From Escherichia coli (lineage in GTDB: Bacteria; Pseudomonadota; Gammaproteobacteria; Enterobacterales; Enterobacteriaceae), in NCBI RefSeq assembly GCF_003334315.1, contig NZ_QOWR01000037.1: a DNA stretch of 46,225 bases. The stretch is one strand, 5' to 3'. A program made the position numbers and the translations under genes. Below the pieces are notes generated by a model, which had not been told where the DNA came from, did no database searches, and saw only the letters and a list, made by a program, of their open reading frames with translations. Position 1 is the stretch's first letter. Every line of letters begins with the position of its first letter. Positions 15,839 through 43,878 of this stretch are shown here, piece by piece.

Positions 15839-15890
15839 CCACAAAATATTTGTTATGGTGCAAAAATAACACATTTAATTTATTGATTAT

Positions 15891-15925
15891 AAAGGGCTTT
15901 AATTTTTGGCCCTTTTATTTTTGGT
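15891..15925 (+). terminator. Putative intrinsic terminator after dapB
   Basis: 7-bp stem AAAGGGC / GCCCTTT with 11-nt loop, followed by a T-rich tract (TATTTTTGG). Confidence 0.5.
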
Positions 15926-16243
15926 ATTATGTTTTTAAATTGTCTATAAGTTCCAAAAATTACATGTTTTGTCTTCTGTTTTTGTTGTTTTAATGTAAAT
16001 TTTGACCATTTGGTCCACTTTTTTCTGCTCGTTTTTATTTCATGCAATCTTCTTGCTGCGCAAGCGTTTTCCAGAACAGGTTAGATGATCTTTTTGTCGC
16101 TTAATGCCTGTAAAACATGCATGAGCCACAAAATAATATAAAAAATCCCGCCATTAAGTTGACTTTTAGCGCCCATATCTCCAGAATGCCGCCGTTTGCC
16201 AGAAATTCGTCGGTAAGCAGATTTGCATTGATTTACGTCATCA

Positions 16244-16283
16244 TTGTGAATTAATATGCAAATAAAGTGAGTGAATATTCTCT
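16244..16283. promoter_or_regulatory. Tandem ArgR operator boxes overlapping the carAB arginine-regulated promoter
   Basis: TGTGAATTAATATGCAAA (16244-16261) matches the ARG box consensus TnTGAATwwwwATTCAnw with one mismatch; a second, weaker box follows. carAB is known to carry ARG boxes at its downstream promoter. Confidence 0.55.
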
Positions 16284-16293
16284 GGAGGGTGTT

Positions 16294-17442
16294 TTGATTA
16301 AGTCAGCGCTATTGGTTCTGGAAGACGGAACCCAGTTTCACGGTCGGGCCATAGGGGCAACAGGTTCGGCGGTTGGGGAAGTCGTTTTCAATACTTCAAT
16401 GACCGGTTATCAAGAAATCCTCACTGATCCTTCCTATTCTCGTCAAATCGTTACTCTTACTTATCCCCATATTGGCAATGTCGGCACCAATGACGCCGAT
16501 GAAGAATCTTCTCAGGTACATGCACAAGGTCTGGTGATTCGCGACCTGCCGCTGATTGCCAGCAACTTCCGTAATACCGAAGACCTCTCTTCTTACCTGA
16601 AACGCCATAACATCGTGGCGATTGCCGATATCGATACCCGTAAGCTGACGCGTTTACTGCGCGAGAAAGGCGCACAGAATGGCTGCATTATCGCGGGCGA
16701 TAACCCGGATGCGGCGCTGGCTTTAGAAAAAGCCCGCGCGTTCCCAGGTCTGAATGGCATGGATCTGGCAAAAGAAGTGACCACCGCAGAAGCCTATAGC
16801 TGGACACAAGGGAGCTGGACGTTGACCGGTGGCCTGCCAGAAGCGAAAAAAGAAGACGAGCTGCCGTTCCACGTCGTGGCTTATGATTTTGGTGCCAAGC
16901 GCAACATCCTGCGGATGCTGGTGGACAGAGGCTGTCGCCTGACCATCGTTCCGGCGCAAACTTCTGCGGAAGATGTGCTGAAAATGAATCCAGACGGCAT
17001 CTTCCTCTCCAACGGTCCTGGCGACCCGGCCCCGTGCGATTACGCCATTACCGCCATCCAGAAATTCCTCGAAACCGATATTCCGGTATTCGGCATCTGT
17101 CTCGGTCATCAGCTGCTGGCGCTGGCGAGCGGTGCGAAGACTGTCAAAATGAAATTTGGTCACCACGGCGGCAACCATCCGGTTAAAGATGTGGAGAAAA
17201 ACGTGGTAATGATCACCGCCCAGAACCACGGTTTTGCGGTGGACGAAGCAACATTACCTGCAAACCTGCGTGTCACGCATAAATCCCTGTTCGACGGTAC
17301 GTTACAGGGCATTCATCGCACTGATAAACCGGCGTTCAGCTTCCAGGGTCACCCGGAAGCCAGCCCTGGGCCACACGACGCAGCGCCGTTGTTCGACCAC
17401 TTTATCGAGTTAATTGAGCAGTACCGTAAAACCGCTAAGTAA
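16294..17442 (+). CDS. carA: Carbamoyl-phosphate synthase small (glutamine amidotransferase) subunit (382 aa), TTG start
   Basis: Conserved N-terminus (M)[21 protein letters not shown]; GATase motif [10 protein letters not shown] take the TTG start at 16294 rather than the ORF-track GTG at 16267. Confidence 0.93.
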
Positions 17443-17459: not shown

Positions 17460-20681
<3,222 letters not shown>

Positions 20682-21369: not shown

Positions 21370-21544
21370 GCCGGATGCGATGCTGGCGCATCTTATCCGG
21401 CTTACGGTTGCTCTCCAGCCGGGTTGGATAAGGCGTTTATGCCGCATCCGACAGCTATCGCCGGATGCGATGCTGGCGCATCTTATCCGGCCTACGGTTG
21501 CTCTCCAGCAGAGTTGGATAAGGCGTTTACGCCGCATCCGGCAA
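21370..21544. repeat. REP/BIME cluster: two tandem ~90-bp REP-containing units between convergent caiF and caiE
   Basis: CGCCGGATGCGATGCTGGCGCATCTTATCCGG...GGATAAGGCGTTTA(T/C)GCCGCATCCG occurs twice in tandem. Confidence 0.85.
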
Positions 21545-29169: not shown

Positions 29170-29940
29170 ATGAAGATTATTACTTGCTATAAGTGCGTGC
29201 CTGATGAACAGGATATTGCGGTCAATAATGCTGATGGTTCATTAGACTTCAGCAAAGCCGATGCCAAAATAAGCCAATACGATCTCAACGCTATTGAAGC
29301 GGCTTGCCAGCTAAAGCAACAGGCAGCAGAGGCGCAGGTGACAGCCTTAAGTGTGGGCGGTAAAGCCCTGACCAACGCCAAAGGGCGTAAAGATGTGTTA
29401 TCGCGCGGCCCGGATGAACTGATTGTGGTAATTGATGACCAGTTCGAGCAGGCACTGCCGCAACAAACGGCGAGCGCACTGGCTGCAGCCGCCCAGAAAG
29501 CAGGCTTTGATTTGATCCTCTGTGGCGATGGTTCTTCCGACCTTTATGCCCAGCAGGTTGGTTTGCTGGTAGGCGAAATCCTCAATATTCCGGCAGTTAA
29601 CGGCGTCAGCAAAATTATCTCCCTGACGGCAGATACCCTCACCGTTGAGCGCGAACTGGAAGATGAAACAGAAACGTTAAGCATTCCGCTGCCTGCGGTT
29701 GTTGCTGTTTCCACTGATATCAACTCCCCACAAATTCCTTCGATGAAAGCCATTCTCGGCGCGGCGAAAAAGCCAGTCCAGGTATGGTCGGCGGCGGATA
29801 TCGGTTTTAACGCAGAGGCAGCCTGGTCAGAACAACAGGTTGCCGCGCCGAAACAGCGCGAGCGTCAGCGCATCGTGATTGAAGGCGACGGCGAAGAACA
29901 GATCGCCGCATTTGCTGAAAATCTTCGCAAAGTCATTTAA
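29170..29940 (+). CDS. fixA: Electron-transfer flavoprotein beta-subunit homolog (256 aa)
   Basis: Start [16 protein letters not shown] (ETF beta family); the ORF-track upstream extension from 29107 is rejected. Confidence 0.93.
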
Positions 29941-38377: not shown

Positions 38378-41471
<3,094 letters not shown>

Positions 41472-41523
41472 ACTTTTTCCATTTCAATTAACCGCACTGC
41501 GGATTACGTGGTAAATCAACAAA

Positions 41524-43878
41524 TCACAAAGTGTTTTGATACGGCAGAATGTTCGAACGCAGCATCTCTTGCGTACCCAGACCGTAGTTGGAGCTCAGGC
41601 CGCGAAGTTCGATGTTAAAGCCGATTGCGTTGTCATATACCGCATGTTGTTTATCGTTATCCCAACCGTTCAGCTTCCGCTCGTAACCGACGCGAATTGC
41701 ATAGCAGCAGGAGCTGTATTGCACACCTAACATAGAGTCGGCTTGCTTGTTCGCATTGGTGTCGTAGTAGTAGGCCCCAACAATGGACCAACGATCGGCA
41801 ATTGGCCAGCTGGCGACAGCACCTACCTGCGAAATACCATTCTTATATTGCTCAGCAGTGGAATAGTACTTAGGCAGCGTAGCCTGAATATATTCCGGGC
41901 TGGCGTAACGGTAATTCAGCTGTACCAGACGGTCTTCATCCCGACGGTATTCAATGCTGGAGTTACTGGTCGCTACGTTATCCAGACGTGTATCGTACTG
42001 AATCCCGCCACGCAATCCCCAACGCTCGGAGATACGCCAGTAAGTATCGCCTGCCCACACCAGTGAACCCGTTTTGTCGTCATTCTCCCATGTTATGTTG
42101 TCATCGCCAGTGCGAGACTCCGTGAAATAGTAGATTTGACCAACGGAAATATTAAAACGTTCAACGGCAGCATCATCATATATGCGAGATGTGACACCGG
42201 TCGTCACCTGGTTAGCGGAGGCAATACGGTCAAGACCGCCGTAAGTCCGGTCCCGGAACAGGCCAGAGTAGTCAGATTGCAGCAGAGACGAGTCGTAGTT
42301 ATAGATGTCGCTCTGATCGCGATACGGCACGTACAAATACTGCGCGCGCGGTTCCAGCGTTTGGGTATAACCCGGAGCCAGCATTTCCATATCGCGTTCA
42401 AAGACCATTTTGCCGTCAACTTTGAATTGCGGCATTACGCGGTTAACGGATTCGTCCAGCTTGGTCGTGTTTCTGGAGTTATACCAGTCAAGATTGGTTT
42501 GCTGATAATGGGTTGCCAGCAACTTCGCTTCGGTATTGATGCTGCCCCAGTTATTAGAGAGCGGCAAATTGATGGTCGGTTCCAGGTGAACACGGGTTGC
42601 TTCAGGCATGTCGTCTCTGGTGTTAACAAAGTGCACTGCCTGGCCGTAAATACGCGTATCAAACGGACCAACATCATTCTGGTAGTAATTAACGTCTAAC
42701 TGCGGCTCTGCCGAGTAGCTACTGGTGTTCTGTTCGCTGAAAACCTGGAACTGCTTGGTTGAAACGGTGGCATTGAAGTTTTGCACCGCATAGCCAACGC
42801 TGAATTTTTGCGTTGCGTAGCCGTCAGTACTGGAACCGTACTTGTTATCGAAATCATTGAAGTAGCTAGGATCGCTGACCTTGGTGTAGTCGACGTTGAA
42901 ACGCCACACCTGATCCATGACCCCGGAGTGGTTCCAGTAGAATAACCAACGACGTGAACTGTCATCGTTCGGGTGTTCATCTTCATAGACTTTATCTGAA
43001 GGCAGATAGTCCAGTTCCATCAAGCCAGCGCCCGCCTGGGAGAGGTAGCGGAATTCGTTCTCCCACATGATGTTGCCACGACGATGCATATAATGCGGCG
43101 TGATGGTGGCATCCATATTTGGCGCGATGTTCCAGTAATATGGCAGGTAGAACTCAAAGTAGTTGGTGGTGGTGTACTTGGCGTTCGGGATCAAGAAACC
43201 AGAGCGACGTTTGTCACCCACCGGCAACTGCAAATAGGGGCTATAAAAGATCGGTACCGGACCCACCTTAAAGCGGGCGTTCCAGATCTCCGCAACTTGT
43301 TCTTCGCGGTCATGAATAATTTCGCTACCTACCACGCTCCAGGTGTCAGAACCCGGCAGACAGGAGGTAAAGCTACCGTTATCCAGAATGGTATAGCGGT
43401 TTTCGCCACGTTGTTTCATCAGGTCCGCTTTACCGCGACCCTGGCGACCCACCATCTGGTAATCACCTTCCCAGACGTTGGTATCTTTGGTGTTCAGATT
43501 CGCCCAGCCTTTCGGCCCTTTGAGGATCACCTGGTTATCGTCGTAATGGACATTACCGAGCGCATCAACGGTTCGTACCGGCTCCGGTTGTCCTGGTGCC
43601 TCTTTTTGATGGAGCTGCACTTCGTCGGCCTGCAGACGGCTGTTACCCTGCATGATATCCACGCTGCCAGTAAACACGGCGTCATCCGGGTAGTCCCCTT
43701 TCGCGTGGTCAGCATTGATAGTCACGGGTAAGTCATTGGTATCGCCCTGTACCAGAGGACGGTCATAGCTTGGCACGCCCAACATGCACTGTGAGGCGAG
43801 GTCGGCTGCCAGTCCCTGTTGACTATAAAGGGCGGTGGCAATCATGGTGGCCAGGAGAGTGGGGATACGTTTTTTCAT
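41524..43878 (-). CDS. lptD: LPS-assembly outer-membrane protein LptD (Imp/OstA), 784 aa
   Basis: Signal peptide [24 protein letters not shown]; large beta-barrel protein upstream of surA in the conserved operon. Confidence 0.96.

Follow-up and report, generated by a model that had tools for sequence, protein, structure and literature searches.

Where translation of carA begins, and how its start relates to the regulatory DNA directly upstream, is the question raised by this locus. In the window (the whole stretch of Escherichia coli DNA analysed, 46,225 nucleotides long), the mechanically called open reading frame (ORF) for carA runs from 16267 to 17442 and opens with a GTG codon, 27 nt upstream of an in-frame TTG. 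The sequence-only reading had correctly identified this GTG as the start of the ORF track, but had preferred the TTG as the initiation codon and had described sequences resembling ARG boxes immediately before it. The two genes of the operon are as follows.

16294-17442, plus strand: carA coding sequence, TTG start, 382 codons plus stop (RefSeq, PDB chains, review and alignment)
17460-20681, plus strand: carB coding sequence, ATG start, second gene of the operon

The carAB locus and its identity to K-12

The genes of the window are ordered mokC/nhaA, rpsT, ileS, dapB, carAB, cai, fix, folA, surA and djlA. All 5426 complete E. coli genomes matched a 661-bp query around the carA start, strain 13C1065T being 100% identical, and positions 16240-16330 were identical in 5290 of the 5426. 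Window coordinates are obtained by subtracting 13357 from those of MG1655 (carA, at 29651 in MG1655, lies at 16294). From 15953 to 16721 the window is the same as K-12 MG1655, base for base, and published experiments on K-12 are therefore directly applicable here. Every element of the sequence-only reading is already established knowledge for exactly this sequence; the carAB control region is among the best-studied bacterial control regions, and the submitted finding repeats textbook facts.

Several other features of the window were recorded. The strain departs from K-12 between nhaR and rpsT (approximately 3000-7000), where it carries a hypothetical gene, a truncated fimbrial usher and an espX1 effector gene with a frameshift. 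There is also a frameshift in yabP, and at its far end the window contains part of a transposase. The features of record L002 used for these strain differences were located at 39251-43221, 1-160 and 332-983, both ends of the window being included. The Rfam scan gave matches above the gathering score for the sok antitoxin RNA (CssrC) of the hokC/mokC locus (248-400, minus strand) and for the nucleoid-associated RNA naRNA4 (CssrE) in the caiF/caiE interval (21422-21492, plus strand). A weak, sub-threshold match to DapZ (25 bits, against a gathering score of 56) was obtained at 15842-15922, plus strand, in the region of the 3' end and terminator of dapB, and the dapB terminator hairpin follows this DapZ-like stretch, near 15892-15930.

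Evidence for a TTG start codon

The TTG at 16294-16296 is followed by the codons ATT AAG TCA GCG CTA TTG GTT CTG GAA GAC GGA, and RefSeq/PGAP also places the start of carA at 16294, giving a protein of 382 amino acids. The E. coli carbamoyl-phosphate synthetase small-chain entries in the PDB all have 382 residues (379 in one entry) and the N-terminus MIKSALL, and a 9-residue N-terminal extension is absent from every one of them. When the ORF product was aligned with chains 1cs0_B and 1bxr_B (E = 1e-261), query residues 10-391 corresponded to chain residues 1-382; this full-length match, with its N-terminus at MIKSALL, identifies the product as CarA, the glutamine-hydrolysing small subunit of carbamoyl-phosphate synthetase. 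The primary paper on N-terminal sequencing of CarA is reportedly that of Weyens et al. (1985, Eur J Biochem). A review of carAB regulation (Charlier 2018, PMC6245113) gives TTG as the carA initiation codon. Direct protein evidence for the TTG start reaches this analysis solely through that review and the PDB sequences. The ribosome-binding site and the upstream codon were located as follows.

16284-16288, plus strand: Shine-Dalgarno sequence GGAGG, 5 nt before the TTG
16267-16269, plus strand: in-frame GTG, start of the mechanical ORF, not a genuine initiation codon

A Shine-Dalgarno sequence was thus found at a functional spacing for the TTG and none for the GTG, and protein conservation begins at the TTG, the frame upstream being unconserved. 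The assignment of the carA start to 16294 is borne out by RefSeq, by the PDB chains, by the review and by the relatives described below. The sequence-only reading had also warned that this start is easily misannotated, which is true of a naive longest-ORF rule; the current annotation is already correct.

The ArgR operator and the two promoters

Two 18-bp imperfect palindromes matching the ARG-box consensus WNTGAATWWWWATTCANW precede the Shine-Dalgarno sequence.

16245-16262, plus strand: ARG box 1 (TGTGAATTAATATGCAAA), approximately -16 to +2 of P2, 1 mismatch, 20.2 bits
16266-16283, plus strand: ARG box 2 (AGTGAGTGAATATTCTCT), approximately +6 to +23 of P2, 3 mismatches, 12.1 bits

The span of 16244-16283 initially proposed for the ARG-box-like sequences was therefore right to one base. 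The TTG, which had been placed within or just after such a box, lies just after (10 nt past box 2) and not within. The two boxes are separated by 3 bp (an offset of 21 bp), the separation typical of enterobacterial ArgR operators (it is rarely 2 bp), by which both boxes of such an operator come to face one side of the helix. They also overlap the core promoter that is repressed, the hexamers of which were positioned by inference. At P2, according to the review, two 18-bp ARG boxes with 3 bp between them are occupied by a single arginine-bound ArgR hexamer, and the promoter is repressed about 50-fold; the binding of ArgR and that of RNA polymerase are mutually exclusive, and repression is relieved by operator mutations in the identical K-12 sequence (PMC6245113). 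The arginine repression of the downstream carAB promoter, which the sequence-only reading had cited as known, is accordingly a published property of this very sequence. The elements of the promoter region are listed below.

16003-16018, plus strand: RutR box (TTGACCATTTGGTCCA) of the P1 control region, given as context, inside the published footprint
16159-16187, plus strand: carAB P1, pyrimidine-controlled, -35 TTGACT, 17-nt spacer, -10 CAGAAT (promoter scan)
16194-16246, plus strand: P1 start (the G of GTTTGCC) and the 53-nt RNA ES003 (Rfam RF02750, 87.4 bits)
16228-16255, plus strand: putative carAB P2 core, -35 TTGATT (16228-16233), 16-nt spacer, TG-extended -10 ATTAAT (16250-16255)

Two independent sources, the coordinates of the RutR footprint (-268 to -296 relative to the TTG; PMC2952853) and the 5' end of ES003 (MG1655 29551-29603, with an experimentally mapped transcription start; PMC4676190), agree on a P1 start at 16194, which precedes the TTG by 100 nt. 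The P1 promoter elements at 16159-16187 are suitably placed for this start. As the P1 and P2 starts are 67 nt apart (PMC6245113), the P2 start should lie near 16261, and it is from this value that the box positions relative to P2 were derived. The P2 hexamers were not called by the consensus promoter scan and were read from the sequence by eye. The positions of the boxes over P2 match steric exclusion of the polymerase, the exact hexamers and the positions relative to +1 being those that we infer. The review text states that the boxes overlap the P2 -35 element, whereas its 67-nt figure places them over the -10 element and the start point (PMC6245113); the -35 statement is probably loose wording.

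ES003 makes up the first 53 nt of the P1 leader. Its reported 3' end (MG1655 29603) coincides with the border of ARG box 1 and the P2 -10 region, and this RNA is reportedly 133-fold less abundant in stationary phase. It might arise by processing, or because P1 transcription is partly blocked by ArgR or by polymerase held at P2; such a block would depart from the current view, in which ArgR does not act as a roadblock. The P1 leader folds better than shuffled sequences (z = -2.4), by means of hairpins upstream of the Shine-Dalgarno sequence, and no significant structure was detected by the same comparison in the P2 leader and initiation region (z = -0.41). No Rfam family was found over the initiation region, the only matches nearby being ES003 in the P1 leader and the sub-threshold DapZ at the 3' end of dapB.

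Alternative explanations for the boxes and the start codon

The ARG-box-like sequences might be chance matches in AT-rich intergenic DNA rather than an ArgR operator, and the degenerate consensus does lend itself to such matches: 12 sites with no more than 3 mismatches were observed in the window, against approximately 6 expected by chance. Single weak matches being common, a weight matrix was built from the best double boxes of eight MG1655 operators (argECBH, argI, argA, argG, argR, argD, artJ and artP; carAB was excluded), the training boxes of which score 9-22 bits. These boxes were chosen with the consensus, so that the matrix is independent of carAB but not wholly of the consensus. Box 1 is the best consensus match within the 46-kb window and ranks first in it by weight matrix. 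The pair at an offset of 21 bp reaches 32.3 bits, the next-ranking pair in the window having 13.3, and neither the box 1 score nor the pair score was reached in any of 100 dinucleotide-preserving shuffles, for which the maximum pair score was 19.2. A formal ArgR scan, the absence of matches in which had been named as grounds for abandoning the proposal, thus recovered the boxes. Their position is, moreover, kept across Enterobacterales and Vibrionaceae, and the sequence is that of the K-12 operator, already footprinted and mutated. A chance origin is refuted by the published footprints, and we give it almost no credence.

Translation from the GTG would make the TTG an internal leucine codon and yield a 391-residue CarA. 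This start gives the longest ORF, and GTG is generally commoner than TTG as a start codon, but the AT-rich sequence preceding 16267 contains no Shine-Dalgarno sequence, whereas a perfect GGAGG lies ahead of the TTG. The GTG also stands at +7 of the P2 mRNA, with just 6 nt of transcript before it. Among the 80 relatives, a GTG is found at -27 in 20, a stop codon occurs at or past that position in 14, and a usable upstream in-frame start is missing in 37 (frame interrupted or startless), with 25 lacking any upstream in-frame start. The MIKSALL terminus of the RefSeq and PDB proteins and the TTG of the review also count against a GTG-only start, which is extremely improbable and already effectively refuted. 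A variant of this explanation assumes dual starts, with P1 transcripts giving a minor 391-residue isoform from the GTG and P2 transcripts only the 382-residue form. The P1 mRNA does include the GTG, preceded by a 73-nt leader, but the codon is no better provided with a ribosome-binding site there, it sits within the predicted leader hairpin region, and the extension is unconserved even inside Enterobacterales (Kluyvera has GCG at this position, and several genera have stop codons). We consider dual starts very improbable, if marginally less so than the GTG alone. The GTG is not used as a start. It occupies positions 2-4 of ARG box 2, and an in-frame GTG is present upstream of carA because ARG boxes carry a conserved TG at positions 3-4. 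Longest-ORF start calling fails at carA because the in-frame NTG that it selects belongs to the ArgR operator, a DNA-binding site taken for a start codon.

Conservation of the UUG start codon

The comparison of CarA N-termini across species that had been suggested as a check was performed on the best 80 loci from a scan of a one-genome-per-species collection, with CarA proteins 70-99% identical to that of the window. These loci span Enterobacterales, Vibrionales, Aeromonadales, Alteromonadales, Oceanospirillales and Chromatiales, and their taxa include Escherichia albertii, Citrobacter, Enterobacter, Erwinia, Yersinia, Proteus, Photorhabdus, Vibrio, Photobacterium, Aeromonas, Shewanella, Pseudoalteromonas, Colwellia, Rheinheimera, Thiobaca, Endozoicomonas and Nitrincola; Pseudomonas, Xanthomonas and Salmonella are not among them. 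The codon aligned with 16294 is TTG in 80/80 of these best loci (81/81 aligned sequences), GGAGG is present at -10 to -6 in 75, and there is an A at +4 in 76. The conservation of the TTG is not a selection artefact, because the start codon played no part in the search patterns or in the ranking.

Synonymous positions of the same genes are far from invariant. At 88 four-fold degenerate sites in conserved columns, the frequency of the major nucleotide ranged from 0.28 to 0.77 (median 0.45), and each of the 88 sites displayed three or four different nucleotides. Codon entropy was about 2 bits at the leucine positions 6, 7 and 9, versus 0 bits at the start codon. The carB start is ATG in all 68 relatives in which it could be located. 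We found no significant indication of an additional constraint on the first carA codons, such as RNA structure or a small RNA site, and this idea was dropped: normalised synonymous codon entropy was 0.74 over codons 2-13 versus 0.82 over the remaining codons (Mann-Whitney p = 0.19).

Conservation of the ARG pair, at -47 to -51 from the TTG (box 1 at -49), is confined to Enterobacterales and Vibrionaceae. Other lineages, including Shewanella, Pseudoalteromonas, Rheinheimera, Colwellia, Thiobaca, Endozoicomonas and others, keep the TTG and GGAGG without it. An origin of the TTG as a mere consequence of the ArgR operator was therefore rejected, as the TTG and GGAGG persist where there is no ARG pair at that position.

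A different element was observed in Rheinheimera, Alishewanella, Arsukibacterium and Pseudoalteromonas, in which an AAACGGG...CCCGTTTTTT hairpin with a T-run replaces the ARG boxes, directly before the Shine-Dalgarno sequence. It is present in ten of the loci (L049, L050, L057, L059, L060, L062, L067, L071, L075 and L076), approximately 15-55 nt upstream of the TTG, and its interior varies between genera. It looks like a carA-leader attenuator or terminator; a simple terminator scan of the hairpins that precede carA made no call in either Rheinheimera or Pseudoalteromonas, although folding does give a hairpin.

Further organisms were drawn from chromosomes mislabelled as plasmids in PLSDB. The carA start is TTG in Amphritea and in Acinetobacter baumannii, for which it is also stated in the literature (PMC12525168), GTG-TTG with no ATG in Ralstonia, and ATG in Neisseria, in Legionella, in the alphaproteobacteria Sphingomonas and Sinorhizobium, and in the Firmicutes Bacillus and Clostridioides difficile. 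The metagenomic representatives had TTG (one), ATG-TTG (one), GTG (two) and ATG (three) at this position, the ATG-TTG occurring in a gammaproteobacterial-like locus with dapB upstream. Among L101 (Ralstonia syzygii), L097, L098 and L096, the betaproteobacterial-type carA genes begin with GTG or GTG-TTG, with no ATG. Non-AUG initiation of carA may thus extend outside Gammaproteobacteria. Many PLSDB "plasmid" records turn out to be entire chromosomes, 2-5 Mb in length (E. coli, Klebsiella, Proteus, Aeromonas, Acinetobacter and Neisseria; hits H24-H26, H31-H34, H38-H40, H44-H45 and others), a contamination issue for plasmid statistics.

Proposed mechanism and meaning of the UUG start

We conclude with high confidence that ArgR, bound to the two ARG boxes, blocks P2, and that the UUG at 16294 initiates the 382-residue CarA, with the GTG unused; none of the results contradicted this explanation. 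Under this mechanism, an arginine-bound ArgR hexamer would occupy the boxes at 16245-16262 and 16266-16283, and RNA polymerase would be excluded from P2 because the boxes cover its -10 region, its start point and the first 23 nt. Transcripts from P1, which start 67 nt upstream, would continue across the operator. Ribosomes would bind GGAGG at 16284-16288 on either mRNA and start with fMet at the UUG. The sequence features, their significance, the identity to K-12 and the conservation come from the present analysis, and ArgR binding, repression and the UUG start are taken from the literature.

That the UUG is so deeply conserved goes modestly beyond the original finding. Genome-wide, AUG is favoured and UUG is selected against (PMC5622118), and the retention of UUG at such depth despite this general disfavour argues for selection for UUG at carA. 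The carA UUG might thus be a trait under purifying selection rather than a quirk of E. coli, hinting that CarA synthesis is subject to a translational set-point or control not yet described, a suggestion that we advance tentatively and regard as rather unlikely to be correct. The UUG might prevent an excess of the glutaminase subunit over CarB, or it might tie initiation to the state of the initiation machinery. The most economical inference concerns dosage: a strong Shine-Dalgarno sequence combined with a slow start codon would set the output of CarA relative to that of CarB. With UUG kept in carA and ATG in carB, carA offers a clean natural case in which to study why a weak start codon and a strong Shine-Dalgarno sequence can together be the optimum. 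A literature search retrieved no report of carA UUG conservation, within a coverage that excluded older primary papers and most papers in subscription journals.

Comparison with known systems

The carA motif RNA of Polynucleobacter and other betaproteobacteria, a riboswitch candidate (PMC8632094), resembles the E. coli arrangement in being a cis element just upstream of the carA ribosome-binding site and start. It is, however, a structured RNA in hosts without tandem promoters, unlike the E. coli P2 leader, with its z of -0.41 and lack of an Rfam match.

Closer at hand, rpsT (ribosomal protein S20; 7458-7721, minus strand) shares with carA a TTG start, at 7721-7719. These two are the only genes with a TTG start among the 38 intact annotated genes in the window, and yabQ, caiE and nhaA start with GTG. 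Translational autoregulation of rpsT is said to involve its UUG codon (Parsons, Donly and Mackie, 1988). For carA, in contrast, translational control has not been described, the regulation known being transcriptional and allosteric (PMC6245113).

Outside Escherichia, an orthologous carAB operon is that of Salmonella typhimurium (Kilstrup et al. 1988; Lu et al. 1992, cited through PMC6245113), and Citrobacter, Enterobacter, Kluyvera and Leclercia share the layout of the window. The closest counterpart is carAB of E. coli K-12, for which the P2 operator and the UUG-initiated carA were described by Piette et al. (1984) and Charlier et al. (1988, 1992), as reviewed in PMC6245113. The strain of the window is not K-12 (its closest record is 13C1065T), and its dapB-carA segment differs by 10 substitutions, but the locus, the boxes, their spacing, the Shine-Dalgarno sequence and the TTG are the same, and the control region does not differ at any position.
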